Shown one piece after another: positions 41,681 through 64,000 of a DNA stretch of 64,000 bases. Every line of letters begins with the position of its first letter. Within the stretch, counting starts at the first letter, position 1. Source of the stretch: an uncultured Planctomycetales bacterium (GTDB taxonomy: Bacteria; Omnitrophota; Gorgyraeia; Zapsychrales; JANLHA01); the NCBI GenBank assembly GCA_964450385.1, contig CAYVEC010000009.1:391-64390 (forward strand), written 5' to 3'. A program made the translations under genes and the position numbers. The notes beneath the pieces were generated by a model. It ran no database searches, was not told where the DNA came from, and saw nothing but the letters and a program-made list of their open reading frames with translations.

Positions 41681-43447
41681 CTATTGAACACCGATAAAGA
41701 CAGGCAATACCGATTTTTCCATAACAAAAAGTTGATCGAGCTGCTTTCTTAACTCGGGATCCTGCACAACATCCCCATACTTGTTTAACACCTCACGGGC
41801 ATCATCTTCCCGACCCGCAAGACGTAGGGCCTGGATCAAATAGCCGACCGCCGCATACCCGGGCTTGATCTGACAGGCATTCGTCAGATCGATGATCGCC
41901 TGATCGATATCTTTTTTAGTCAAGGCTAATCGTCCAGCCTGAATGTGTGTCGCAACAATGCCAGGGAAATCCTCAATTGACAAACGATATCGTGACTCTG
42001 CGGCATCCCTCTCACCTCTGGCCTCATGAGCCATGCCGATCGCAAAATCCAATCTCGGATCAACAATGCCCCGACCTTCTGCTTCTGCAGCGTATTTCAA
42101 AACCTCATCCGGGTTGCTGCCCAACTTACTAATACTCAATGCAGCATATAAATACCCTCGACCGTTCCGAGGAAAGTCTCGAATCATGTGCCGAGCAGAA
42201 ACATAATTATTTCTCGTCATTCCTGTTCCAACAAAGGAAAATCCGGCACAAAGCACAAGAACAAACAAAAACAATCGTTCTGCTAAAAGCATCCGACGAC
42301 GAGAAAAAAAACCGTCAAGCCTGTCCAGCAGATACACCCCAACGACAATCAGCCCCACTAAAGGAAGATAAATAAAACGATGGGCAAAAGGAGAGACAAG
42401 GGTGATCACATTTGAGACGGGGGCATAAAAAATGAGGGCCCATATCACCCCAAAAAACATCGACCGGCATTCGAGCATTTTTTTGAAATAAAAAATACCA
42501 GCCCCTAAAATAGCGAGACCAACAACAAGATCCATATTCGTCAAAATCGTATCCACATCTTCGGCAAAAACAGGGGGAAGATACTTAACAGACCACGGAA
42601 AACAAACCACCTTAAAATAATAGCCAGCAATATGGATAATAACCAAGGCGCGCGATAATCGGTCCTGCCCCAACGGATAAAGATAGCGCAAAGCCGAGTT
42701 CGGCAAAACGTAAAAGTAAACAAACAAATAAGATGACAGGATGGCCACATACCCAATGTATTCAAACTTAAATAACTTTATTCTTCTTGACGGGCCATCG
42801 GCCAACAACCAGTCATAAATAAGCACAAATAGCGGCAGGCCTATGGCCGCCTCCTTTGAAAAGACGGCTAAGAAATAAAAAAGCCAAGATAAGCACAACA
42901 TTATCATTCCCTTGCCTCGTCGATAAGAATCGTACGTTAAAAAAGACGCGAGAACGAGACAGGTTGCCAAAAGATCAGCCCGAAACCCTACTGCACAAAC
43001 CGCCTCAACCTGAATCGGATGAACGCCAAAAAGAAGCGCCGACCAAAAGGCCAGGTCTGGCTTAAGTGAAAATACGAGCACGGCGAGACGGTACACGAGA
43101 AAAACATTGAATAAATGAAAAAGAAGATTCGTTAAATGAAACCCAAAGGCGTCCTTCTTCCAGATAGCCGTATCCAAAAAATACGTCAACGATAATACCG
43201 GCCGGTAGGCCACCGAGCCCGTAATATCAGTCTCCTCATTAAAAACCCTTTCCCAATTAGATCCATACTGATTTGTAAATAGAAGCGGGATATTAGAAAG
43301 TGATTCATAAAATGAATTATTCCCGATAATCATCGTATCATCACCAACAACGCCGTTAAACAGGCTCGGCAAAAAAACAACCGCAACCACAATCAAGGCA
43401 ACCCAAATGCTTTTTTTCATGATCACCTTCCCCTGGTTAAAAAACAC
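41681..43447 (-). CDS. GT-C-like polytopic membrane protein with C-terminal TPR repeats (TMTC/PMT_2-DUF1736-like)
   Basis: Acidic motif in the first loop (GDDTMIIGNNSFYE), a YRPVLSLTYFLD motif resembling the YRPL motif of TMTC/DUF1736 proteins, more than 10 TM helices, and C-terminal TPRs. Confidence 0.45.
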   Translation of the reverse strand: MFFNQGKVIMKKSIWVALIVVAVVFLPSLFNGVVGDDTMIIGNNSFYESLSNIPLLFTNQYGSNWERVFNEETDITGSVAYRPVLSLTYFLDTAIWKKDAFGFHLTNLLFHLFNVFLVYRLAVLVFSLKPDLAFWSALLFGVHPIQVEAVCAVGFRADLLATCLVLASFLTYDSYRRGKGMIMLCLSWLFYFLAVFSKEAAIGLPLFVLIYDWLLADGPSRRIKLFKFEYIGYVAILSSYLFVYFYVLPNSALRYLYPLGQDRLSRALVIIHIAGYYFKVVCFPWSVKYLPPVFAEDVDTILTNMDLVVGLAILGAGIFYFKKMLECRSMFFGVIWALIFYAPVSNVITLVSPFAHRFIYLPLVGLIVVGVYLLDRLDGFFSRRRMLLAERLFLFVLVLCAGFSFVGTGMTRNNYVSARHMIRDFPRNGRGYLYAALSISKLGSNPDEVLKYAAEAEGRGIVDPRLDFAIGMAHEARGERDAAESRYRLSIEDFPGIVATHIQAGRLALTKKDIDQAIIDLTNACQIKPGYAAVGYLIQALRLAGREDDAREVLNKYGDVVQDPELRKQLDQLFVMEKSVLPVFIGVQ

Positions 43448-46331
43448 TGTTCACGCGCAGCCAAAATCTAAGGTCATCTTCCGCGTCCCGGACCGGGCGG
43501 GCCGCATCAAGCTGAATCACCGCCTTTTCCAGGAACCCGAGAAGATCAACATGAAACCTCAGCCCGATCCCAATATCTTTCTTTAACGCGGTTTCCGACA
43601 TCGAATCAAACCACGCCTGGCCTGCTTCAGCAAAAATCACCCCGTCAATCCGGCGAAGCCCCACCAAACGGTCAACGGCATAGACGCTCATCTCATTGAT
43701 CAGGGGATATCGGCATTCAATGACACCAAGCGCGGCATTCGCTCCCCGAAGGGACTTGCGCTCATATCCCCTGAGGCCCTCGGCACCCCCGAGCTGAAAA
43801 AGGTCCTTATCATCCGGATACCCGGCGCCGATCTTCGCCCGGAGGGCCACCGTCCCCTGCCTCATCATACGGTGATACCCATGGATGTCAACCCCGCCCC
43901 GCGAAAAATAACTTCCCGCGCCGAACACGTGCCCGGCCTGTTCGGCAACGGCTGTGAGCCGATGCCCCTCCCGGGGATCCGGATACGGGCCCGAACGATT
44001 CCGGTGAAAGGCCATCCCAACAATGGATTCGTGGTCCCGACGGTATTCAATATTCCGAAGGTCTGACGCACCCATGAGCCCCTCATCATATTCATCGGGC
44101 CGCTGATTGTCGACCACATACAGGGTCAAATGGTCCTGGACGTCCAACATCCCATAGGCCGCCGGCCACAGGTCCTGGCGGACATACATCTTCGTGCTGA
44201 TCATATCATCAGGCCCGCCGGTAACGTCCTTGACCCGCCGCCATTCCCCGCCAACATGGGTCGGTGAGGTCCAGAAATTTTTATATTGGAACCCGACCCG
44301 TGATGTGAAGAGCTCGTTCCCGATGTCATAATCGTTGCCGGCATAAAGATAATACTGATACGGCTTTTGCCAGCCCGCTTTTAGCCCCACCCCTTCGTTG
44401 ATCTCCGGGCCGATCACGAGCTGATAGGCGTCATCCGGGACAAAGGCCGGATGATCCCAAAGCCCTAAATACAACCAGACCGGCCTCGCCCGATTCCAGC
44501 GGGGCCACACATTGTTGACCCGGTCCTGATCAAGCGTCTTCTCATCAGGGTCCAGACGCGCCCCCCGCAGTCCGCGGGCAGCCAGGTCGATCGTCGCGGG
44601 AGACGAGCCATCCCAGATAAAACGTTCGGTGCTGCCACTGGCGCCCACAGTCTCAACCTCAACCGGCGCGACAAGGTCTCCGTGCTGCGCGATCTCGAGA
44701 ACCCCTGGGGCGACCCTCCGCAGACAGGGATCATAACGACCCGAACCATAGACCCAATTGCGAAAGAACGCATCAAGGTCCCGGCCCGAGACCTTTTCAC
44801 ACAGCGCCTGAAAATCCGGGATCGACCAGTTCTGATACCGATACCTCGCCATGGCCTCGGCCAAGACAGCGCGCATCGCCGCAGACCCGATCTCGGCCTC
44901 AAGGGCCTCGATCACCCGTTCGCCCTTGCCATAAATCAGCGCGAAGATCTGGCTCGGTTCCGAATACTCATCGAGACGGCGGGCGAGCGGGCCGTCATAC
45001 CCCGCGCGGAGCCCTGCTTTATACCGATAATCGCGGAATCGGCGGAAACTCGGCCGCGGCAGGAGCGGTTCGATCCCTGACAGCCATCGCGGAAACTCGA
45101 GCACCGAGGCATCCTTGCCGTAGCGCTCTTCAATATACTGAAGGGTCAAAAACGAATTGATCCCCTCCTCGAGCCACATCTCGCGTGACGCATCGACCCC
45201 GATCATGTTGTACAGCCACTGGTGCCCGGTCTCATGCGCGATAAGAAAATCAAAATGCCGGTCAAGGATCCCCGGGAGTTTAAAGGCCCGCGTATCAATA
45301 AAAATCATATTCGCCATCTGTTCCCCGCCATAACCAAGATGGACCGCTGCCACGGAAAACTGTTCATAGGGATACGGGGCTTGAAAGATCGCCTCATAAA
45401 AATCCATCGCCGCCTCAGCCGACGCCAACGCGTCAGCCGCGCGATCCTCGTCGCCCTCAAGATAAAACACATACAGATCCGTCTTCCCCCGCCGCACGGA
45501 GAGGTGCTGATACTCTGGACTCGCGCTAAAGGCAAACGCCCGGATCGGCAGAGACGTCGTGATGATCACGCGTTTCTGCCCGCCCGAGGTCTCCTCCCGG
45601 GAACGGACACCCGAATGCGCGACCTGATAATCTTCCGGCACGGTCAACGTCACATCATAAGAGGCCGCGTCCGAATAAAAGGGCCGATGGAACGGATAAA
45701 ATAACCCCTTGTCCCATCCGCTCGCCGCCTGAGCCGCGACGATCGGATACCAATACGCGGCACGCACGACCGACCCATGCCACCCGATCCGGCCATAGGC
45801 ATGCGGGACCCGAAGCCTGAATTTGACCGTCACCTCGATCTGCGCCCCAGGAGCGACCGGCCCAGGAAGGTCAACCCGAAGGAGCGTCTGGTCCGCGCCC
45901 TCAACGGTCCACGGGACCTCATCCCCCGACGCCTCATCAACAACCGCATCAATATAAAAATCTCCGGTGTCAAAACCCTCAGGGTACGGATCGATTTTAA
46001 AATATCCAGCGTATTGAAAGAGCAGACGCTGTTCAGCAGACGTGTAACGGCGGTTCGGATAGATATGAAAATACACGTGATCGATCGGTCCCCCTTGACG
46101 ATTGACCACAACAACACGCTCAACGGCAGAGATCGTCTTGGTCACGGGGTCCCATGCAGCAGAAATATCATAGTGGTGATATGCCTCAGCGCTGACTAAA
46201 CGGACAGAACCGATCAACACGGCCGCGGCCAGCGCCACGACACAGCCGGTCCGGGAGATCAGATCATTCCGTTGCCACATTCTCATGCGACATCGGGCCC
46301 TGCGGCTGACGGAGTTTGGAGAGATATTCAC
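43437..46331 (-). CDS. M1-family zinc aminopeptidase domain fused to a C-terminal Omp85/surface-antigen-D15-like beta-barrel
   Basis: Signal peptide. HExxH-x18-E zinc motif (HETGHQWLYNMIGVDASREMWLEEGINSF). The C-terminal 250 aa show an Omp85-like pattern (FQLGGAEGLRGYERKSLRGANAALGVIECRYPL) and the protein ends with an aromatic residue (...RFWLRVNSVF). Confidence 0.6.
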   Translation of the reverse strand: MNISPNSVSRRARCRMRMWQRNDLISRTGCVVALAAAVLIGSVRLVSAEAYHHYDISAAWDPVTKTISAVERVVVVNRQGGPIDHVYFHIYPNRRYTSAEQRLLFQYAGYFKIDPYPEGFDTGDFYIDAVVDEASGDEVPWTVEGADQTLLRVDLPGPVAPGAQIEVTVKFRLRVPHAYGRIGWHGSVVRAAYWYPIVAAQAASGWDKGLFYPFHRPFYSDAASYDVTLTVPEDYQVAHSGVRSREETSGGQKRVIITTSLPIRAFAFSASPEYQHLSVRRGKTDLYVFYLEGDEDRAADALASAEAAMDFYEAIFQAPYPYEQFSVAAVHLGYGGEQMANMIFIDTRAFKLPGILDRHFDFLIAHETGHQWLYNMIGVDASREMWLEEGINSFLTLQYIEERYGKDASVLEFPRWLSGIEPLLPRPSFRRFRDYRYKAGLRAGYDGPLARRLDEYSEPSQIFALIYGKGERVIEALEAEIGSAAMRAVLAEAMARYRYQNWSIPDFQALCEKVSGRDLDAFFRNWVYGSGRYDPCLRRVAPGVLEIAQHGDLVAPVEVETVGASGSTERFIWDGSSPATIDLAARGLRGARLDPDEKTLDQDRVNNVWPRWNRARPVWLYLGLWDHPAFVPDDAYQLVIGPEINEGVGLKAGWQKPYQYYLYAGNDYDIGNELFTSRVGFQYKNFWTSPTHVGGEWRRVKDVTGGPDDMISTKMYVRQDLWPAAYGMLDVQDHLTLYVVDNQRPDEYDEGLMGASDLRNIEYRRDHESIVGMAFHRNRSGPYPDPREGHRLTAVAEQAGHVFGAGSYFSRGGVDIHGYHRMMRQGTVALRAKIGAGYPDDKDLFQLGGAEGLRGYERKSLRGANAALGVIECRYPLINEMSVYAVDRLVGLRRIDGVIFAEAGQAWFDSMSETALKKDIGIGLRFHVDLLGFLEKAVIQLDAARPVRDAEDDLRFWLRVNSVF

Positions 46332-46674
46332 GAAAACGCCTATCGGCTAAGAGATTCGTCAAATCGCGGTCCTGGAGCAGGAACTCAAAATCCTGATACC
46401 CTTTCTCGATCGCCATCTGCATCGCCTCAAAGGCCTGGTCCGTTTTCTTCAACAAGGCGTAACTGCAGGCAAGATTATAGAGGACGACCGGATCGTCGGG
46501 ATAGAGCGAAGCGAGACGCTGATCGATGATAAGCCCGTCCTCAAACCGGCCGGCCTTGGTATATGTATCACCAAGCGCGGAGAGGGCCTCACGGAATTGC
46601 GGCCGATTCCGGACGACTCCTTCGAAAAAACCGATCTCGAATTCAAGATCCCTCGTAACTTTTTTTGCCATCAC
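46264..46674 (-). CDS. TPR-repeat protein
   Basis: 136 aa with TPR-like repeats (ALSALGDTYTKAGRFEDGL...LYNLACSYALLKKTDQAFEAMQMAIEKGY). Confidence 0.5.
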   Translation of the reverse strand: MMAKKVTRDLEFEIGFFEGVVRNRPQFREALSALGDTYTKAGRFEDGLIIDQRLASLYPDDPVVLYNLACSYALLKKTDQAFEAMQMAIEKGYQDFEFLLQDRDLTNLLADRRFREYLSKLRQPQGPMSHENVATE

Positions 46675-46694: not shown

Positions 46695-47855
46695 TCAGGA
46701 CTCGGACAGATATTCCTTGATGCGCCGCACGGCCTCTTTTAAATTCTCATAGCTCGTCGCGTACGCCATCCGGACATAATGCTCCAGGCCCTGGCCAAAG
46801 GCCGTGCCCGGAACGATCGCCACCTTTTTCTTATTTAATAAATCCTGCGCAAACGTCAGCGCGTCTTTCCCCGTGGATTCGATCGAAGGAAACACATAAA
46901 AAGCCCCTTGCGGAAGGTGACACGACAACCCCATCTCGTTTAAGGCGTCAACCATAAAACGCCGACGGCGCATATATTCCCTGCGCATCTCCTGGACCGC
47001 CTTGGCCCCTCGGTGCATCGCCTCAACCGCCGCCATCTGACCCGTGATCGGCGCACACATGATCGTATACTGATGGATCTTGGTCATGGCGGCAACGATA
47101 TCTTTCGGGCCGCAGACCCAGCCGATCCGAGATCCGGTCATCGCATACCCCTTAGAAAATCCGTTCAAATAGATCGTCCGTTCTTTCATCCCCGGCAGGG
47201 TGACAAGAGGAACATGATCAAAATCAAATGACAGCTCATCATAGACCTCATCGCTGATCACAAGAAGATCGTGCTGCTTAATCACCTTGATCAAAGCCAT
47301 GAGCTCCCGGCGGGTATAGGACGCCCCTGTCGGATTACACGGATAATTGATCAGGATCGCCTTGATCCCGCCTCCACGGCAGGCCTCATCGATCTGCTCA
47401 GGCTGCAGACGAAATCCATGAGCCATCGACGTTCGAATAACGACAGGCGCCCCTCCGGCAAGCGTCGCCATGGGCGCGTACGAAACATAGCAGGGTTCCG
47501 CGATTAGGACCTTTTCGCCAGGATTGAGAATAGCCCGCATCGCGAGATCAATCCCTTCGCTCACCCCCACGGTGATCAGCATCTGCTCTTCGACGTCATA
47601 GGTCACCCCATACCGATGCTTGAGAAAAGCCGCGATCTCCCGCCTGAGCTCGATGAGCCCTTTGTTGGAGGTGTAGGAGGTGTAGCCCTGTTCCAAGGAA
47701 AAGATCGCCTTCTCCCGGATATGCCACGGGGTGACAAAGTCAGGCTCGCCGACCCCAAGGGAGACGACGTCCTTCATCCCCAAGACCAGGTCAAAAAATT
47801 TTCTAATGCCTGAGGGCGGCAGATCCCTCACGACACGTGAGATGCGTTCAGTCAT
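46695..47855 (-). CDS. Class I/II PLP-dependent aminotransferase (AspC family)
   Basis: PLP-lysine motif (GFSKGYAMTGSRIGW) and fold-type I pattern. Confidence 0.85.
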   Translation of the reverse strand: MTERISRVVRDLPPSGIRKFFDLVLGMKDVVSLGVGEPDFVTPWHIREKAIFSLEQGYTSYTSNKGLIELRREIAAFLKHRYGVTYDVEEQMLITVGVSEGIDLAMRAILNPGEKVLIAEPCYVSYAPMATLAGGAPVVIRTSMAHGFRLQPEQIDEACRGGGIKAILINYPCNPTGASYTRRELMALIKVIKQHDLLVISDEVYDELSFDFDHVPLVTLPGMKERTIYLNGFSKGYAMTGSRIGWVCGPKDIVAAMTKIHQYTIMCAPITGQMAAVEAMHRGAKAVQEMRREYMRRRRFMVDALNEMGLSCHLPQGAFYVFPSIESTGKDALTFAQDLLNKKKVAIVPGTAFGQGLEHYVRMAYATSYENLKEAVRRIKEYLSES

Positions 47856-47867
47856 AGACGTCCTTTA

Positions 47868-48353
47868 TTACAACGAAATATTCAATCGGCGCTGCCGATC
47901 GCGCCTAACGAAAATGTGCCCATCCTCTTTGTATTTCTTTAACAGAAAATGCGTCGTCGTGCTCCGCACATTCGGCATCGGCGACAGCTTGGATGCCACA
48001 AAATCAGCGACGGTTTGGATCGACTCACCCTCGATGATCACAAGCAGGTCATACGCCCCCGAAACAAGATAGCACGTCGTCACTTCCGGAAAACTATAGA
48101 CCCGCTCAGCGACATAATCGAAACCGACATCCTTCTGCGGCGTGATGCTCACCTCGATCAGGGCCAAAACAAAAGGCGCGGCGTCCTTTAATAAGGACCG
48201 GTTGATCAGTGTTTTGTATTTGGCGATCGTCCCGTTCTTCTCATAATTCTTGATCGCCTTCTTGACCCCGGCGACATCGCGGCCCGTCATCTTCGCGATC
48301 TCCTCCGGCGTGGTCCGAGCGTCACGGATCAAAATCTCCAAGATCTCATCCAT
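47868..48353 (-). CDS. Lrp/AsnC-family transcriptional regulator
   Basis: N-terminal HTH (ARTTPEEIAKMTGRDVAGVKKAIKNYEKNG) and a C-terminal RAM domain. Adjacent to the aminotransferase. Confidence 0.8.
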   Translation of the reverse strand: MDEILEILIRDARTTPEEIAKMTGRDVAGVKKAIKNYEKNGTIAKYKTLINRSLLKDAAPFVLALIEVSITPQKDVGFDYVAERVYSFPEVTTCYLVSGAYDLLVIIEGESIQTVADFVASKLSPMPNVRSTTTHFLLKKYKEDGHIFVRRDRQRRLNISL

Positions 48354-48502: not shown

Positions 48503-49525
48503 TTATAAGAGCTCGTCGATCCGGCTGCGCAGCTGCTGATTCTCTTTGTCCAGGCGCATGATCTCGTCCATCATCTGACGCTTCTTCTGAACAACCCCGC
48601 TCGTCTCCTGAACAGAGATCTTGATCGCCTCAAGCTCAGCCTCAAGCTTCGCCACCTGGGCCTCCAGGGCCCGCTGCTCCTGAACAATATCATCGGGAAC
48701 AACCTCAGCGGACGCCGCCAAAGAATCCCGCTCTTTACTTAATACCTCATTCCTCCGGAGCTGCTGGGCCTTTTGCTGTTCGAGACGCGCGATTTGGGCC
48801 TCAAGCTCCTTGTTTTTCGCAGCGACCGATTCAGCCTCTTTGACCAGGTTTCGATTATCCGCCTTCATCGTATTGATCTTGGCGTCCAGCTCCTGCTCTT
48901 TCTGCTGATAGCCCTTCAGTTCTTTTTTAAGCTGATCGATCTCGTCATCCTGACCGCGCTCAAGTTCCTGACGGGAAATGTCCTGCAATTTCAATTCAAG
49001 GGAGAGCTCGCGCTTCTGGACCTCAAGCTCTGACAACTGCGTCTGCCAGAGTTCGGTCTTCTTCTTCTCGCTCTCGAGCTGCTGGATCATCCGCAGCTTT
49101 TCATTCTCAAGATCCCCGACCGTCTTTCGCGCCTGCTCAATATCCGCCTTGATCTTATCGATCACCTGGAGCTGGTCCTGACGGAACGTCTCCATCTTTT
49201 TATTCTCGCGCTCCTGAAGGTCCAGTTCATCCTTGACCTTCATCACATCTGTTTGGATCCCGCTCAGCTGTTCACGGAGCAATTGATATTCGGTGTTGAG
49301 CCGTTTGTTTTCTTCAAGCAGGTGACTAGTCTCAGCCTTGGCCTCATCGATCGCGGTCTGCCATTCAGTAAAACTCAAAGACTTTACTTCTGAAGGGGTT
49401 ATGTCGCTCATCGCAGGCGCGGCCGAGACCGCCTGGGCAAGCCCGAGGAACAACACCGCCATAAAGACCCATGAGATTGTATGTTTCATAGGCCTCATTA
49501 TAATAATAGATACGGCGGCTGGCAA
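48503..49525 (-). CDS. Secreted/periplasmic long coiled-coil protein
   Basis: Signal peptide (WVFMAVLFLGLAQAVSA) followed by about 280 aa rich in E, K, Q and L heptads. Confidence 0.4.
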   Translation of the reverse strand: MPAAVSIIIMRPMKHTISWVFMAVLFLGLAQAVSAAPAMSDITPSEVKSLSFTEWQTAIDEAKAETSHLLEENKRLNTEYQLLREQLSGIQTDVMKVKDELDLQERENKKMETFRQDQLQVIDKIKADIEQARKTVGDLENEKLRMIQQLESEKKKTELWQTQLSELEVQKRELSLELKLQDISRQELERGQDDEIDQLKKELKGYQQKEQELDAKINTMKADNRNLVKEAESVAAKNKELEAQIARLEQQKAQQLRRNEVLSKERDSLAASAEVVPDDIVQEQRALEAQVAKLEAELEAIKISVQETSGVVQKKRQMMDEIMRLDKENQQLRSRIDELL

Positions 49526-49533
49526 ATGGAAAC

Positions 49534-50997
49534 TTAAGAATTTCGCCGAGAAGGACCCGTCTTTTTCGTCACGGTATAGACCGGGACCCGGACGGAAGGC
49601 CGGAACGATTCCTTGGCGCGCCTGAGGTCCGGATCGTCCATGTCATCCATCGTGTTCACCGTGTCATAGGCGGCCCAGCACGGGTCCTGACAAAACTGAC
49701 GAAAAATATACGTGGCCAATTCCGGGAAATCCGGGTCCGCGACCTCCAGCATGACACAGAATGTCCGTTCGGTCAGCGGATAACCGGCCGTATACGCCCT
49801 GACCACGCCGTCCACAGTCACGACCGCGGCGATCACGCCGAGGGCCTCGGCTGAGGCCAGGACATTCGCGTGGACCCCCCGATTCTCCCCGATCATCGCG
49901 GTAAGATCATCACGCCGCGGCGCCCCGGCCTTTCGCGCCGCCCAGCGCGCATAGACCTCGCAGCACCCCCCGAAATGCTCCGGTCGATAACGCTCATAAC
50001 GCGGGGCGTAGCGCGAGACGGCCTGATTATACTCCCCCCGACGGGATTTATAGGCACCCCCTTCAAGGGCGGCAATATCCGCGCGCCGGTAACAATACTC
50101 TTCACCCTTCTTGTAGATCTCAAAATCCTCGGCTGGGAACAGGGGACGGTGCGCCTCGGTGACGTGTTCCACCCGCGAAAACTGCGGCGCGGCGTTCACA
50201 CGGTCCATCTTCTCAAAACACGCCTCAACGGTCTCGCGGTCAGCCCCATCTCCGAGCGGGGGAAAATACAAAAACGTCCCCAGCTCAGAATGGGCAAAGA
50301 CACACGTGCTCCCCCGGATCCGTTCGACCTGAAAACCGAAGAAATCCTCCCACGCCGCCATCCCGGCAAACGAATACGCCGACACCTCCCGGGCCTCCTG
50401 CCCAAGGGCATCCGTACAGGGACCTCGAAGACTCAGTACCGACGAGGCGGTCCCAGGAGGCACGACGCCAGGGAACGGCTGAATGTAAACCAGCTCATCG
50501 TCAAAGGCGCTGTAATCATGGAACAGCCCTGGATTCCGGCGGATGAATTTTGTGACCTCGAGCGAGGAGAGATCGCGGATGAGCTCCTCGCAATATGCAT
50601 TCATGGGCCGTGTGCCCCAGTGTTCCTGAACATACGGACAGCTCAGATGCGCCGCGAGCCACCCCGCCCCCTCATGCCAGGCAAAGACAAACGGGTACAG
50701 AGCGCATTCAAAGGGCCGGACCGGATAGACGCCGCAGGTGTTATCCCCGTCGCAGAGATGGAGACAGCGGAACCCCTCGCCCGACGCCTCGGTCTTGAGG
50801 AACCCCGCCGGGTCGATCTGCGCCCGCGGGGCCTGCGATGCCCCGCCGGTGTCAAGATTCGGCTTTTCTTCCTGGGCCACAAAGGGCCGCCAGAGACCTC
50901 CCGGATCCGGGAACCGGCAGCACCCCTTACAGGCGATACAGACCTCTGACGGAACAAGTTTTTTAAAGGCAGTGTTTAAATTCATTCTCCGAGACAC
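49534..50997 (-). CDS. Fusion protein: YkgJ-type Cys-cluster (CxxCxxCC) domain plus DUF2156 (aminoacyl-phosphatidylglycerol synthase C-terminal-like) domain
   Basis: N-terminal CIACKGCCRF motif and later cysteine pairs typical of UPF0153/YkgJ. The C-terminal half resembles the LPG-synthase C-terminal domain (DUF2156) family. Confidence 0.45.
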   Translation of the reverse strand: MSRRMNLNTAFKKLVPSEVCIACKGCCRFPDPGGLWRPFVAQEEKPNLDTGGASQAPRAQIDPAGFLKTEASGEGFRCLHLCDGDNTCGVYPVRPFECALYPFVFAWHEGAGWLAAHLSCPYVQEHWGTRPMNAYCEELIRDLSSLEVTKFIRRNPGLFHDYSAFDDELVYIQPFPGVVPPGTASSVLSLRGPCTDALGQEAREVSAYSFAGMAAWEDFFGFQVERIRGSTCVFAHSELGTFLYFPPLGDGADRETVEACFEKMDRVNAAPQFSRVEHVTEAHRPLFPAEDFEIYKKGEEYCYRRADIAALEGGAYKSRRGEYNQAVSRYAPRYERYRPEHFGGCCEVYARWAARKAGAPRRDDLTAMIGENRGVHANVLASAEALGVIAAVVTVDGVVRAYTAGYPLTERTFCVMLEVADPDFPELATYIFRQFCQDPCWAAYDTVNTMDDMDDPDLRRAKESFRPSVRVPVYTVTKKTGPSRRNS

Positions 50998-59752: not shown

Positions 59753-61540
59753 TCACGTACCCGGTGTATCGTTCTGCCGATCATGGTACTTCGTGTGAAG
59801 AAGATGATGGCTTTTCGGCCCGCACGGGCCTTCGGTCAAGAACTCGTCATAGAGTTTCTTGATCGAGGGATTCTCATGCGACTTGCGGATCGCCTTGCCT
59901 TCGTCTTCCTTATAAATGGCATTGATCCTGGCCTCGCGCACCGAATCATCCGTGAACCTCGGCTGACCTCCGCCGCCGATACATCCGCCGGGGCAGGTCA
60001 TGACCTCGACAAAATGATACGACGCCTCCCCGGCCTTGATGCGGTCAAGCAGGGCCGCCGCGTTTGAAAGGCTATGCGCGACCGCCACCCGCATCTCAAC
60101 GCCTTCCAAAAACGACCAGGCCGGTAACGCCCCTTCGATCTTCAGACTCGCCTCTTTCATCCCCTTCAGCCCAGCGAGAGGACGCACATGGAGATTCTCC
60201 ATCGGCAGCGGCCGGCCCGTGACGATTTCATAAACGGTACGGATCGCAGCCTCCATGACCCCACCGGTATTAGCAAAGATATCCGCCGCCCCGGATGAAC
60301 GCCCCAAGGGATCGTCCATGGTCCCGTCGGGAAGACGCTCAAAATTGATCCCAGCGGCCTGGATCATCCGCCCGAGCTCGCGGGTCGTAAGGACATAATC
60401 CACATCCCGGAATCCGCTGCTCGTCATTTCCGGCCGCGCCGCCTCAAACTTTTTAGCGGTGCACGGCATGACCGAGACCACGACCATACGCGCGGGATCG
60501 ATCCCCTTTTGCTGCGCGTAAAACGTCTTGGCAAGGGCACCGAACATCTGCTGCGGCGACTTGCACGACGAGAGGTTCGGAAGGAATTCCGGATAAAAAT
60601 GCTCGGTGAATTTAATCCACCCCGGCGAACAGCTTGACAACTGTGGCAGGGCCACCGGCTGATGATCGACCAGCGCGCGCTTGAGACGAAGCAGGAGCTC
60701 CGTTCCCTCCTCAAGGATGGTGAGGTCCGCGGTGAAATTCGTATCAAAAACCGCGTCAAATCCCATCTGCCTGAGGGCCGTGACCATCTTGCCGGTCACG
60801 AGGGTGCCCGGCGGCAGTCCAAAACACTCCCCCAGGGCCGCGCGGATCGCCGGCGCCGTCTGCACAACAACGAATTTTTCCGGGTCGTCAAGCGCGGCGA
60901 GGACCTGCTTCTCATGGCTGCGCTCGATGATCGCGCCCACCGGACAAACCGCGGCGCACTGCCCGCACTGGACACACGCGACCTCATCAAGTCCTAGCGC
61001 AAAGGCCGGACCGATCACGGTATCATACCCGCGGTTCTGAGGAAAGAGAACCCCGACGCGCTGAACCTCATTGCAAACAGTGACGCACCGCCGGCATTTA
61101 ATACATTTTCCCGAATCCCGCACCAGGGCCGGAGACGAATCATCGACGATCCGCTCAGGCCGCTCACCCCCATACCGCGGCTCACGGATCCCAAGCTCAT
61201 TCGCCAAGGCCTTGAGTTCGCAGTCTTCACTACGGTCGCAGTATTGACAATCGCCCTCATGCTCGCTCAGAAGCATCTCAACGACCATGGTCCGCGCGTC
61301 GCGCACCCGCTTGCTGTTGGTGTGGATGACCATCCCTTCGCTCACCGGGGTCGAACACGAGGCCGCCAAATTCCGCCCGCCCTCAACCTCAACAACACAG
61401 ACCCGGCACGCCCCAAGCGGAGGCTTCCCCTGCAAAAAACAGAGCGTCGGAATCTCGATACCGACCTGCCGGGCTGCGTCCAGGATCATCGTTCCAGGAG
61501 GGACCTCAACCGTCTGCTGATTGATGATTACCTTGGTCAT
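59753..61540 (-). CDS. hydA: [FeFe]-hydrogenase catalytic subunit (M3-type, HydA)
   Basis: N-terminal 2Fe-2S ferredoxin motif, a His-ligated 4Fe-4S ([14 protein letters not shown]), two 4Fe-4S ferredoxin motifs ([22 protein letters not shown]), and H-cluster motifs L2 ([11 protein letters not shown]) and L3 ([16 protein letters not shown]). L1 is non-canonical, SSCSPGW instead of TSCCPxW. Confidence 0.85.
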
Positions 61541-64000
61541 GATTCATCTCCCCCTTTCGCAGACGGGCACTTGCCGTAATCGCACCGCAGGCACCGCCGG
61601 GCCTGACGCCGGGCCACGGCCTCATTCCAAGACTGTTCGACCTCATCAAAATTGTGGCGGCGCCGGCCAACGTCCAAGAGCTGCATCTTTTCGCGCGGAT
61701 ATGGAACCGGGTCCGCGTCAGGGTCAAAATCCGTTTTGACCTCCTGTGCCTCCCGCCAAAAGGCGTGTTCCGCACCGGTAAAATACCGGTCGATCCCGAC
61801 CGCGGCGCGTTCCCCCGAGGCGATCGCCATCACGACCGACGACGGCCCCATCATCGCGTCCCCTCCGGCAAAGACCCCTTCGATCGAGGTCTGACCGTAG
61901 ACCGGATCGGCCTCGATAAACTTTCGGGAGGAAAGACGGATATCCGTTCCTCGGCTCAGGGTCTCCGTCCGGATCGCCTGCCCGATCGCGATGATCACCT
62001 GATCCACCGGAACATCGATCATGTCTTCCGGATTCGCCGTCGGACGGCGGCGCCCGGTCTGGTCAAAATCCCCAAGCCGCATCCGGACACAACGGAGATT
62101 CGAGACCCGGCCCTCAGCGTCTTTTTGAATCTCAACGGGATGGGTGAGCGGCTGGATCCGAACCCCTTCATGGACCGCCTCCTCCACCTCCTCGGCATAG
62201 GCCGGCATCTCATTCTGGCTCCGTCGGTACATCACCGTCACCTCTTCGGCCCCGAGCCGCAAGGCGCTGCGCGCGGCATCAATGGCAGCATTCCCTCCGC
62301 CGATGACCACAACGCGGCGGCCCACCGGAACAGACCCGCGGATATTATACGTGCGTAAAAATTCCAAGGCATCAACAACGCCCTGGGCATCCTCCCCGTC
62401 AACACCAAGGCGCGTGCTCTCCGGAGCCCCGACACCGATAAAGACCGCCTCATAACCCTGGGCCTTCAGGTCCTCGATCGTAAAATCCCGCCCGAGGGCC
62501 TTGCCGGTCTCGATATCAACGCCAAGCCGCTCGATCATCCGGATCTCGCGCGCCAAAGTTTCGCGCGGCAGACGGTAGGCCGGAATCGTCTGAACGAGCA
62601 TCCCGCCGGGCCGAGACTCCTTCTCAAAGACCTTGGGCCGATACCCAAGCCGCGCCAAAAAATACGCGCATGCGAGCCCGGCCGGACCCGCGCCCACGAT
62701 CGCGATCCGCCGCCCCGCGTTCTTTTCGTCCTGACGGACCTCGGGAAGCTGGACCACGACCTCCTGGTCCACCATGAACCGTTTGACCCCGCGGATCGAG
62801 ACCGCAGCATCCAGGGTCGCCCGACGGCATTTATCCTCACAGGTATGAAAACAGACACGCGCGCAGACAGCAGCAAAGGGATTCCGCTCACGATGGAGCT
62901 TGAGGGCCTCGGCGTAGCGCTGTTCTCCGGTGAGCCCGACGAATCCCGGGACATCAACCCCTGCCGGACAGGCGCTCTGACACGGCGCGCGGACGAGGTC
63001 CGGACACACCCCGGCCTCGCAATGCTTGTCCCGGATATGCTGTTCGTATTCTTTCAAAAAATACCGCAGCGTGGACCGGACAGGGTTCGCGGAGGTATAG
63101 CCGAGCCCGCAGAGCGAGGCATCCTTGATCTGCATCCCGAGCTGGAACAGGCGTTCAATGTCCTCCGGCTCCCCCTTGTCCTGACAGATCTTCTCCAAGA
63201 TCTCAAGCATCCGCTTCGACCCGACGCGGCACGGCACGCATTTGCCGCACGACTCCTCCTGAACAAACTCCAGAAAGAACCGCGCCACGTCGACCATGCA
63301 GGCATCATCGTCAATCACAATGAGTCCACCCGAGCCCATGATCGCGCCGAGCTCAACCAGGGTGTCATAATCAAGCGGGACGTTGAGGTGCTCGCGAGGA
63401 ATGCACCCCCCCGACGGGCCTCCGATCTGGGCCGCCTTGAAGGATTTACCGTTTTTAACGCCTCCGCCGATATCAAAAACAAGCTCGCCAAGCGGCGTCC
63501 CGATCGGGACCTCAACAAGCCCAGAATTATTCACCGCACCGGCGAGGGCAAAGACCTTGGTCCCTTTACTTTTCTCACTCCCCATCAAGGCGTACCATTC
63601 AGGCCCGTTCAAGATAATCGCCGGGACATTGACATAGGTCTCAACATTATTGAGCAGACTCGGCCGTCCCCACAGACCAGACTGCGCCGGAAACGGCGGA
63701 CGGGGCCGCGGTTCACCGCGCCTCCCCTCGAGCGAGGCCATGAGCGCCGTCTCCTCCCCGCAGACAAAGGCCCCGGACCCCATACGGATATCGAGATCAA
63801 AGGCGAATCCAGAACCCAGAATGTTCTCACCAAGAAGCCCGGCGGTCCGCGCCTGCTCGATCGCGGCCGTGAGCCGCGAGACCGCGAGCGGATATTCTGC
63901 ACGGACATACACATACCCCTGCCGCGCGCCGATCGCAAAGGCTGCGATCGTCATCCCCTCAATGACGCTGTGAGGATCACCTTCAAGAACGCTCCGGTTC
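61537..64000 (-). CDS. NuoF-like NAD(P)H/FMN/4Fe-4S subunit fused to a GltD-like FAD/NAD(P)H oxidoreductase domain (5' end beyond the window)
   Basis: The reading frame stays open past 63954 to the window edge (..[19 protein letters not shown], a NuoF motif). FMN/NADH regions and the 4Fe-4S motif (CGKCVPCR) are followed by extra Cys clusters and two Rossmann GxGxxG motifs ([36 protein letters not shown]) as in glutamate synthase small subunits. Overlaps the hydA start by 4 nt. Confidence 0.8.

Follow-up and report, generated by a model that had tools for sequence, protein, structure and literature searches.

To our knowledge, all Omp85 proteins studied to date insert or translocate proteins, with the exception of PlpD, whose function was revised in 2024. 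Type Vd proteins are defined by one POTRA domain that separates the passenger from the barrel. For the archetype of this class, the paradigm was overturned by Hanson et al. (2024), who reported that the patatin domain of PlpD stays in the periplasm and that PlpD has no insertase function (PMC11116518). Heinz and Lithgow (2014) described ten Omp85 subfamilies, including Metallo (PF00149), WD40 and noNterm, with a part in periplasmic proteolysis or quality control put forward as one possibility for the non-POTRA subfamilies (PMC4104836). In E. coli, BepA, a zinc peptidase of the periplasm, docks beneath BamA and functions in outer-membrane-protein quality control (PMC8423444, PMC13478230). How does a zinc peptidase that is covalently joined to an Omp85 barrel compare with these systems?

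The window, which is the whole 64,000-nucleotide stretch of DNA analyzed here, contains a gene for such a fusion (43437..46286) on the minus strand, as are all other genes and domains for which coordinates are given below. In the encoded protein, a signal peptide is followed by domains I to III of an M1 peptidase, a 42-residue junction and a 16-strand Omp85 barrel; the peptidase accounts for the N-terminal two-thirds and the barrel for the C-terminal third. The presence of an M1 peptidase and an Omp85 barrel in one ORF, first noticed in a preliminary description of the locus, was borne out by profile scores above the cut-offs (65.4 and 36.5 bits) and by a 16-strand model. That description assigned 964 residues to the product, in line with the longest ORF (43437..46331), whose upstream end is the GTG at 46331. 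However, a database protein with 100% identity (P0001) has 949 residues, and translation therefore most likely starts at ATG 46286 (Met16 of the 964-residue ORF) and proceeds to the TAA stop codon (43437-43439) to yield a 949-residue product. The Sec-type signal peptide (MRMWQRNDLISRTGCVVALAAAVLIGSVRLVSA; residues 1-33; 46188..46286) lacks a lipobox and would be cleaved after VSA. The AlphaFold model of the protein (pLDDT 90.5, pTM 0.90) forms a helix at residues 8-30 within this segment, and an N-terminal hydrophobic segment is found in nearly all full-length homologues listed. The HETGH-x18-E (WLEEG), LRGY and C-terminal NSVF elements that had been read from the sequence were confirmed by translation.

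The peptidase module belongs to peptidase family M1, as indicated by its M1 fold and by a Peptidase_M1 (PF01433) match of 65.4 bits (E 7e-18, cut-off 27.7) at ORF residues 302-526 in the 964-aa numbering. It is composed of the N-terminal beta domain I (residues 37-275; 45462..46178), the thermolysin-like catalytic domain (residues 280-511; 44754..45449) and a small all-beta domain equivalent to M1 domain III (residues 520-578; 44553..44729), which has six strands in the model. PDB M1 structures with domain III were aligned over 497-535 residues, compared with 429 residues for LTA4H, which is devoid of domain III. Long M1 enzymes also have a helical domain IV, which is missing here, and the junction and the membrane barrel are found in its stead. 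The PepN equivalog models scored below their cut-offs (TIGR02412, 53 bits versus 591; TIGR02414, 25 versus 718), and a Pfam profile search of the whole protein found no patatin match.

Like the classical M1 enzymes, such as PepN, ERAP1, tricorn factor F3, LTA4 hydrolase and the two-domain D. radiodurans M1 protein (PDB 6a8z), the fusion protein exhibits the HExxH-x18-E zinc-binding signature (HETGH-x18-E, with the last Glu in WLEEG; H351, E352, H355 and E374; 45165..45236) and the catalytic tyrosine in an invariant YxKG motif (YGKG; residues 452-455; 44922..44933). H351, E352, H355, E374 and Y452 are invariant in all 70 homologues compared (39-56% identity to the window protein), whereas the commonest-residue frequency averages just 0.68 over the catalytic domain. 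Such invariance of the zinc ligands, the general-base Glu and the catalytic Tyr is the pattern expected from purifying selection on catalysis. The protein differs from the classical aminopeptidases in its signal peptide, its predicted outer-membrane anchoring and its exopeptidase motif. The GxMEN motif of the aminopeptidase subgroup of family M1 is replaced by an invariant, non-canonical GGEQM (residues 320-324; 45315..45329), and phmmer alignments to PSA and F3 place Gln323 opposite the GAMEN Glu. The Glu residue of GxMEN binds the free N-terminus of the substrate. More distant clades contain G-N-E, with Glu occupying the column of the GAMEN Glu. Because GAMEN is replaced by GGEQM, the label "aminopeptidase" is uncertain, and the activity, judged from the sequence, may differ from that of a classical aminopeptidase or be weak. 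The "complete M1 catalytic signature" claimed earlier thus holds for the zinc site and the catalytic Tyr but not for GxMEN.

The Omp85-type barrel covers about 330 residues in the model (residues 621-949 of the 949-aa form; 43440..44426), rather than the ~250 first estimated. It matches the Omp85 family PF01103 with 36.5 bits (E 5e-9, cut-off 24) at ORF residues 663-925 in the 964-aa numbering, and the C-terminal 299 residues alone, a check that the preliminary description had proposed, score 38.6 bits. The 16-strand fold is nearest to those of BamA, TamA and Sam50 and has long loops 4 and 6, as do the closed BamA and TamA barrels. Loop 6, between strands 11 and 12, contains LRGY (43764..43775), which represents the Omp85 (V/I)RG(Y/F) signature, and strand 13 contains FAEAG (43620..43634; family consensus FFDAG), which represents the FxDxG motif; both motifs are conserved throughout all clades. 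The protein terminates in NSVF (43440..43451), and the terminal Phe, which constitutes the beta-signal, is present in 70/70 homologues. The protein is not identifiable as a BamA or TamA orthologue, given that it has neither the 3-5 POTRA domains nor a BamA equivalog match, with the BamA models far below their cut-offs (TIGR03303, 16.3 bits versus 297; NF058613, 20.5 versus 1050). No canonical BamA was found within the 64-kb window.

The enzyme and the barrel are connected by a conserved 42-residue junction (DPxxxxLDxDRxNNxWPR...; residues 579-620; 44427..44552), the motif of which is common to all three M1-Omp85 clades in the clade alignment. The top-residue frequency of the junction columns averages 0.71, and 33% of the columns reach 0.9 or more. 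In the model, the junction forms short helices and a single short strand, and a long or pore-spanning helix is absent. No POTRA domain, a search for which had also been suggested, was matched in the whole protein at E<=1, and residues 520-640 gave zero Pfam matches at E<=10. The predicted model contains no beta-alpha-alpha-beta-beta element in this region, which is all-beta with short helices. The absence of POTRA places the protein with the non-POTRA Omp85 subfamilies, which likewise combine Omp85 barrels with non-POTRA N-terminal modules. However, none of the ten subfamilies contains an M1 peptidase, and the junction motif and the clades of the M1 fusion are particular to it. Omnitrophota had barely been sequenced by 2014.

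On which side of the outer membrane does the peptidase reside? In Omp85 proteins generally, loop 6 is extracellular and lies between strands 11 and 12. Given that the LRGY loop is found between strands 11 and 12, strand 1 is predicted to begin on the periplasmic side. Furthermore, the full-length model was aligned with POTRA-containing PDB chains over 300-326 residues (8us1_A, 326; 9n2d_A, 321; 9ccg_D, 310; 9hj3_A, 303; 7e4h_A, 300), whereas the barrel-only model was aligned with the same chains over 255-270 residues. With barrel-only PDB chains, both models align about equally (234-268 versus 237-275). Because the longer full-length alignments were obtained only with POTRA-containing chains, the 38-61 residues preceding strand 1 appear to occupy the membrane-proximal POTRA site. 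The pre-barrel module is thus modeled on the periplasmic side at the POTRA position by a predictor that is blind to membranes and secretion. The periplasmic turns are more conserved (~0.66) than the extracellular loops other than L5 and L6 (~0.53), a contrast that is expected of any outer-membrane protein and is therefore no evidence for orientation. Pairing of a mini-strand in periplasmic turn 6 (residues 868-870) with the junction strand (residues 598-602) was considered and dismissed, given that the mini-strand persists in the barrel-only model.

The search for the same fusion in relatives, recommended at the outset, was productive. The full-length single-ORF fusion recurs in more than 100 protein clusters, and matches were found in 106 species genomes, almost all of which are labelled Omnitrophota. 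Of the 80 loci retained from these genomes, most contain the full-length or nearly full-length fusion, and the few partial matches are located at contig ends. This recurrence as a single full-length ORF across genomes excludes a frameshift, a pair of separate genes or an assembly artefact. A related clade retains the M1 fold and the barrel and has lost HExxH and the catalytic Tyr. The next barrel relatives are proteins that combine Peptidase_MA_2, PD40 and Omp85 in one chain; their barrels are also fused to MA-clan peptidases, and they probably correspond to the WD40 class of Heinz and Lithgow. The two matches of a barrel-only word search were rejected as stand-alone barrel relatives: P0121, on a contig of 2.3 kb, starts within the M1 domain and is very probably truncated, and P0122 is cut by the contig end, 46 nt from the contig start. 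No published description of an M1-Omp85 fusion was found in the full-text papers searched, in which the sole article to name all of its components proved unrelated, and the fusion appears to be an undescribed Omp85 architecture.

The M1-Omp85 gene is located in a conserved, housekeeping-type neighborhood in at least 106 species genomes. Its start (ATG 46286) is overlapped by 23 nt by a small TPR gene (46264..46674), which encodes a 136-residue protein with a TPR end-of-group domain and without a signal peptide. The TPR gene, whose overlap had prompted the suggestion of a partner, is indeed a conserved and often translationally coupled upstream neighbor, detected in 55 of 86 sequences (85 loci and the window). 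However, none of the 55 TPR homologues has a signal peptide, and these proteins are therefore cytoplasmic and cannot partner the mature outer-membrane protein. Further upstream, a class I/II aminotransferase (46695..47855) and an AsnC/Lrp-type regulator (47868..48353), both conserved neighbors, form a run in the same orientation (46695..48353) with intergenic gaps of 12 and 20 nt. In 24 of 85 loci, a Ste24-type M48 protease with membrane helices is encoded upstream in the same gene run. The downstream gene for a 588-residue membrane/TPR protein was rejected as a conserved partner because it is present in this genome only; it is unrelated to the 657-residue upstream gene of other loci. A jackhmmer link between a 340-residue secreted coiled-coil protein and the 657-residue PilZ protein is probably an artefact of coiled-coil composition. 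A promoter and terminator scan of 39.9-51.5 kb returned counts equal to the shuffled expectation.

On balance, we consider it somewhat more likely than not that the protein is an active M1 peptidase that is carried by an Omp85 barrel without POTRA and faces the periplasm. The precursor would be exported by Sec via the signal peptide, and the BAM machinery would insert the barrel through the C-terminal Phe signal. The peptidase would remain in the periplasm, held rigidly just beneath the outer membrane and not acting as a self-secreted passenger, and its substrates would be peptides or the exposed ends of polypeptides on the inner side of this membrane. Envelope protein processing or quality control would be its likeliest role, and trimming of imported peptides for nutrition may be a second one; the AsnC-aminotransferase neighbors fit a nutritional as well as a quality-control role. 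A periplasmic, active peptidase is supported by the two Pfam scores above curated cut-offs, the invariant catalytic residues and the AlphaFold model, by the predicted periplasmic start of strand 1 and placement of the pre-barrel residues at the POTRA site, and by the lack of a secretion-type linker, with neither POTRA nor a long helix in the junction. The housekeeping neighborhood, the Ste24-type M48 neighbor and the barrel relatives with MA-clan peptidases also favor it, and Gln at the GAMEN Glu position, which may indicate non-classical or weak activity, weighs against it. By analogy, PlpD (PMC11116518) and BepA (PMC8423444, PMC13478230) would serve as precedents for a periplasmic enzyme under a barrel. 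As in the BepA-BAM system, a zinc metallopeptidase is located beneath an Omp85 barrel on the periplasmic side, here by model. Genes for a TPR protein and an M48 peptidase, moreover, frequently precede the M1-Omp85 gene. However, BepA is a separate soluble M48/TPR protein, whereas the M48 neighbor here is of the Ste24 type with membrane helices, the TPR protein lacks a signal peptide and the quality-control role is a proposal.

The preliminary description interpreted the protein as a type Vd-like autotransporter, in which the barrel would carry the M1 peptidase across the outer membrane to generate a surface or released aminopeptidase for peptide scavenging or host interaction. We regard this interpretation as distinctly unlikely. 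What it captured is that an N-terminal enzyme, preceded by a signal peptide, is joined to a 16-strand Omp85 barrel at the C-terminus, as in PlpD/FplA (patatin-POTRA-Omp85), and the 42-residue junction is in principle long enough to span the barrel. AaaA is a surface-exposed enzyme of the M28 family whose linker spans the pore of a classical 12-strand autotransporter barrel; none of these features is found in the M1-Omp85 protein. Surface aminopeptidases on autotransporters are nevertheless known from this type Va protein of P. aeruginosa, in which an aminopeptidase-type enzyme is likewise covalently joined to an outer-membrane barrel (PMC3426542), and the order of passenger and Omp85 barrel resembles that of PlpD as originally described (PMC4104836). 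However, PlpD/FplA contain a patatin-like phospholipase and an intervening POTRA, in place of which the present protein has an M1 zinc peptidase and a DPxxxxLDxDRxNN junction. The model puts the pre-barrel segment at the periplasmic POTRA position, the junction has no pore-spanning helix, and the long loops 4 and 6 (LRGY) resemble those of the closed barrels of BamA and TamA. With its ~540 residues, a folded zinc enzyme is also unlike the beta-helical cargo that is known to pass through Omp85 barrels. Moreover, the enzyme of the archetype PlpD is itself reported to be periplasmic beside its barrel (PMC11116518), as modeled for M1-Omp85, and, contrary to the initial assumption, type Vd is not the only enzyme-Omp85 fusion, given the Metallo-, WD40- and noNterm-Omp85 subfamilies on record (PMC4104836).

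Two further observations count against the favored reading. The RGY motif of loop 6 and FxDxG would be needless for a mere anchor, and the clade that has lost its catalytic residues keeps the fusion, which suggests functions of both modules beyond tethering and cleavage. In a different alternative, the protein might be a self-contained Omp85 machine, in which an active barrel performs lateral gating or translocation as in BamA and TamA and the M1 module replaces POTRA as a periplasmic substrate platform, although we find this rather doubtful. Client insertion or triage might be coupled to proteolysis, as though BAM and BepA had been joined in cis, a notion that we hold with little confidence, and it is comparably uncertain that a non-catalytic substrate-binding platform survives in one clade. 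Both functional motifs, LRGY and FxDxG, are kept in all clades, TamA and BamA are the nearest structural neighbors of the barrel, and the M1 module is modeled at the POTRA position. In the related clade without HExxH and the catalytic Tyr, retention of the M1 fold and the barrel points to a binding or scaffold role independent of catalysis. In addition, the outgroup relatives join an MA-clan peptidase, a TolB-like PD40 propeller and an Omp85 barrel, and BepA docks on BAM in trans. However, the clients and the gate opening are conjecture, PlpD, as the sole studied enzyme-Omp85 fusion, lacks an insertase function, and the BamA-specific NCBIfam scores are 16-20 bits against cut-offs of 297-1050. 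Very improbable, in our view, is an inert or non-peptidase M1 module in this genome, with a purely structural or binding function comparable to that of TAF2 or of the relatives without HExxH. Gln at the GAMEN Glu position and the existence of catalytically dead relatives are consistent with such a domain, but none of the zinc ligands, nor the general-base Glu or the catalytic Tyr, varies in 70/70 sequences, against the domain mean of 0.68.

Annotation of M1-Omp85 as a new autotransporter class is tempting and probably wrong. The fusion would instead add a large, ancient branch to the Omp85 proteins, with a complete zinc peptidase in place of the POTRA domains. Family members occur in at least 106 species genomes, almost all of them labelled Omnitrophota, and there are relatives elsewhere that have lost the catalytic residues. 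It offers a natural test case for Omp85 barrels as general scaffolds for periplasmic enzymes and for proteolysis that is hard-wired to an Omp85 gate. If the barrel is itself an active machine, M1-Omp85 would represent a new functional class of Omp85 protein for the handling and triage of envelope proteins in Omnitrophota. For these uncultured bacteria, whose cells are often very small, the fusion points to a predicted conserved enzyme of the envelope.

M1-Omp85 belongs to both peptidase family M1 and the Omp85 superfamily. Its open reading frame (ORF; 43437..46331, minus strand, 964 aa) is real, and the two modules named in the preliminary description are both recognized by Pfam-A: Peptidase_M1 at ORF residues 302-526 (65.4 bits, E 7e-18, cut-off 27.7) and the Omp85 barrel, PF01103, at ORF residues 663-925 (36.5 bits, E 5e-9, cut-off 24). 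The last 299 residues by themselves score 38.6 bits against PF01103. NCBIfam gives weak matches only, to PepN, LTA4H, Omp85 and BamA models, all far under their cut-offs. Because a 100% identical database protein has 949 aa, translation most likely starts at ATG 46286 (Met16 of the ORF), inside the TPR gene upstream, whose final 23 nt it overlaps. Residues are numbered hereafter in this 949-aa form unless the ORF is named.

An AlphaFold2 model built from a family alignment of 70 sequences (mean pLDDT 90.5, pTM 0.90) consists of a signal-peptide helix (residues 8-30), M1 domain I (37-275), the catalytic domain (280-511), a six-strand beta domain (520-578), a junction (579-620) and 16 beta-strands (621-945). 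The structural alignment extends over 497-535 residues with M1 structures that have domain III, versus 429 with LTA4H, an M1 structure without it, which argues that the modeled six-strand domain is M1 domain III. Where long M1 enzymes have a helical domain IV, M1-Omp85 has the junction and barrel instead. The barrel carries the Omp85 signatures LRGY, in the long loop joining strands 11 and 12, and FAEAG (family consensus FFDAG), in strand 13; its last residue is Phe in 70 of 70 sequences. M1-Omp85 has no POTRA domain: Pfam finds no POTRA family in the whole protein at E<=1 and no family of any kind in residues 520-640 at E<=10, and the model contains no beta-alpha-alpha-beta-beta element.

A search for the same fusion in related genomes had been suggested, and the fusion proves to be widespread. 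Among 5.8 billion protein clusters searched, 159 relatives were found, at least 120 of them full-length (about 910-1090 aa) and every one of these carrying PF01433 and PF01103; source names, where given, are 'M1 family aminopeptidase' or 'BamA/TamA family outer membrane protein' from Candidatus Omnitrophota. With each GTDB species represented by a single genome, 106 genomes contain relatives. Nearly all are labeled Omnitrophota or are metagenome-assembled genomes (MAGs) labeled 'uncultured Planctomycetales', and one is a MAG labeled Deltaproteobacteria; one 'uncultured Planctomycetales' locus (L008) is the same contig that NCBI calls Omnitrophota. This recurrence across clusters and species genomes rules out an artefact, and the fusion is therefore not a recent accident either.

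When 1.84 billion representatives were scanned exhaustively with HMMER, using the junction and barrel (ORF residues 594-964) as the query, just 309 matches were obtained at E<=1e-3; local HMMs and Pfam divide these into four groups. The core family (910-960 aa) has GYGGEQM, HExGHQW and YGKG, and a 'long' M1-Omp85 clade (980-1075 aa) has HExCHQWW. In a catalytically dead clade (820-890 aa), the M1 fold is recognizable, HExxH and the catalytic Tyr are gone, and RGY, FxDxG, the terminal Phe and the junction motif are kept; its sole cluster with names is from Nitrospirota. Its members (clusters P0164, P0187, P0196, P0220, P0224, P0227, P0231, P0250, P0260 and P0263) look like pseudo-peptidases kept on an Omp85 barrel. 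The junction motif DPxxxxxDxxRxNN is common to these three groups, which argues for a single ancient fusion. The fourth group, further out (830-1200 aa), combines Peptidase_MA_2, a PD40 beta-propeller and Omp85. These next-closest barrels (for example, P0182, P0184, P0189, P0206 and P0209) have an N-terminal Peptidase_MA_2 domain with HExxH near residue 135, PD40/TolB-like repeats and a C-terminal Omp85 barrel; they probably correspond to what Heinz and Lithgow called 'WD40-Omp85', a class in which the peptidase domain seems to have gone unnoted. A stand-alone relative of the barrel was not found. The two apparent cases both begin inside the M1 or beta-domain region; P0122 is truncated at a contig end, and P0121 lies on a 2.3-kb contig.

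The M1 catalytic signature is complete for zinc binding, as first described, and for the catalytic Tyr: H351, E352 and H355 of HExxH, E374 and Y452 of YGKG are invariant in the 70 homologues, whose identity to the window protein is only 39-56%. Such invariance fits selection for catalysis. The position of the GxMEN exopeptidase motif is occupied by an invariant G-G-E-Q-M (residues 320-324; 45315..45329), which places M1-Omp85 outside the GxMEN aminopeptidase subgroup. The GAMEN Glu binds the free amino terminus of the substrate; phmmer alignments with puromycin-sensitive aminopeptidase and F3 put Gln323 in the column of this Glu and E322 in the Met column. In more distant clades the motif reads G-N-E, and its Glu occupies the canonical column. 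The acidic residue differs by one position within the family, with G-G-E-Q in the core and G-G-N-E or G-N-E in divergent members (P0136, P0149) and the 'long' clade, and this shift may mark a changed recognition of the substrate N-terminus. The protein is therefore an M1-fold zinc peptidase, but the classical aminopeptidase specificity implied by its earlier name is not assured.

On which side of the outer membrane does the M1 module lie? The RGY loop (L6) is extracellular in all Omp85 proteins. Since strands 11 and 12 are joined by L6, strand 1 has to begin in the periplasm, and the M1 module would lie there too, provided that the junction does not loop back through the barrel. In the model the junction comprises one short strand and a pair of short helices; nothing in it resembles a pore-spanning helix. 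The full-length and barrel-only models align over 326 and 265 residues, respectively, with 8us1_A (TamA), 321 and 270 with 9n2d_A (BamA), 310 and 260 with 9ccg_D (BamA), 303 and 255 with 9hj3_A (BamA), and 300 and 262 with 7e4h_A (Sam50), all of which have POTRA; for chains without POTRA, the lengths are 254 and 264 (4n74_A), 254 and 261 (8us4_A), 268 and 275 (8xnb_B), 255 and 258 (7btw_A), and 234 and 237 (9mgg_F). These lengths indicate that 38-61 residues before strand 1 superpose on the membrane-proximal POTRA; the segment directly preceding the barrel is thus predicted to occupy that position on the periplasmic face. The predicted placement agrees with the sole experimental precedent, PlpD, the 'type Vd' archetype, whose patatin domain is reported to remain in the periplasm; Hanson et al. 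2024 consider the passage of a folded enzyme through an Omp85 barrel unlikely (PMC11116518).

The neighborhood was compared across the window and 85 related loci (86 sequences). The gene order is secreted coiled-coil protein, AsnC/Lrp regulator, aminotransferase, small TPR protein, a Ste24-type M48 peptidase and an approximately 650-aa PilZ-domain protein (each in some lineages only, neither in the window), M1-Omp85, YjbQ, PfkB kinase, a small ORF and Era GTPase. In many Omnitrophota, the M48 gene (Peptidase_M48_N and Peptidase_M48; 24 loci, for example, L001:4892-6004 and L002:2936-4045) follows the TPR gene and precedes M1-Omp85, the start of which it frequently overlaps by 4 nt. The PilZ protein (about 30 loci, for example, L002:4038-6011) is encoded immediately upstream of M1-Omp85 in the more divergent Omnitrophota clades and has a marginal N-terminal match to this c-di-GMP-binding domain (23.6 bits, cut-off 22.5). 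The TPR gene (46264..46674, minus strand, 136 aa) had been suggested as a partner. It is a conserved neighbor, detected upstream of M1-Omp85 in 55 of 86 sequences and frequently overlapping the following gene by 4 nt, but none of the 55 TPR homologues has a signal peptide, which indicates that the protein is cytoplasmic and cannot bind the mature outer-membrane protein. A chaperone-like action on the M1-Omp85 precursor is speculative. In two assemblies, TPR is fused in frame to M1-Omp85 (P0062, 1088 aa; L039:3053-6256, a 1067-aa ORF), which would place the signal peptide internally; the fusion could be real or an error of sequencing or assembly at the overlapping stop and start.

The window also holds, 16 nt downstream of M1-Omp85, a minus-strand gene (41681..43447, 588 aa; about 580 aa from the likely start ATG 43420) whose product has numerous predicted membrane helices and, at its C-terminus, TPR repeats. 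TPR is its only Pfam match and no homologue occurs in the 85 related loci; it looks like a lineage-specific insertion in an otherwise conserved gene order. The cluster is headed by the secreted coiled-coil protein (48503..49525, minus strand, 340 aa), in which a long coiled coil comes after the signal peptide; it is conserved in 39 of 86 sequences and has no family assignment. A 487-aa protein (49534..50997, minus strand) unusually pairs a CxxCxxCC zinc/iron-chelating domain with LPG_synthase_C, the C-terminal domain of phosphatidylglycerol lysyltransferase; the pairing is seen again in this neighborhood in other Omnitrophota (L004, L005). The remainder is core chromosome: LeuRS, MnmG/MnmE, MurJ, UvrC and an [FeFe] hydrogenase, the large subunit of which has N-terminal ferredoxin-like domains. 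This hydrogenase adjoins an 805-aa NuoF-like/GltD-like flavoprotein (both within 59753..63954, minus strand), a combination that points to electron bifurcation by the hydrogenase and, in turn, to an anaerobic way of life based on fermentation. The window contains no BamA, and counts of promoters and terminators over 39.9-51.5 kb matched the shuffled expectation.

We consider it somewhat probable that M1-Omp85 has peptidase activity: an Omp85 barrel lacking POTRA would hold the M1-type zinc enzyme at its periplasmic face, where it would cleave peptides or exposed polypeptide ends right beneath the outer membrane. An inert M1 module in this genome is very improbable, given the invariant catalytic residues. 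The barrel itself may instead be functional, with the M1 module substituting for POTRA as a BAM-BepA assembly fused in cis; the retained Omp85 motifs and the catalytically dead clade speak for this unlikely alternative. Surface display or secretion of the M1 module in a type Vd-like manner, as initially proposed, is rather doubtful in view of the predicted periplasmic placement. The protein has neither the patatin domain nor the POTRA that define type Vd, likewise lacks the defining features of BamA/TamA, and is probably not a new secretion system.

For the active periplasmic peptidase, we favor a role in envelope protein processing or quality control, because BepA, which docks under BamA (PMC8423444, PMC13478230), offers an analogy, an M48 peptidase is a frequent neighbor and the barrel has other peptidase-fused relatives. 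Nutritional peptide trimming would fit the conserved AsnC and aminotransferase neighbors. Heinz and Lithgow 2014 distinguished ten Omp85/TpsB subfamilies, three of them non-POTRA (Metallo, WD40 and noNterm) and none an M1 peptidase fusion (PMC4104836), and a full-text literature search found no published description of one. Among enzyme-on-Omp85 proteins, M1-Omp85 represents an undescribed architecture, and the family merits experimental work as one that is real, ancient and conserved across Omnitrophota.
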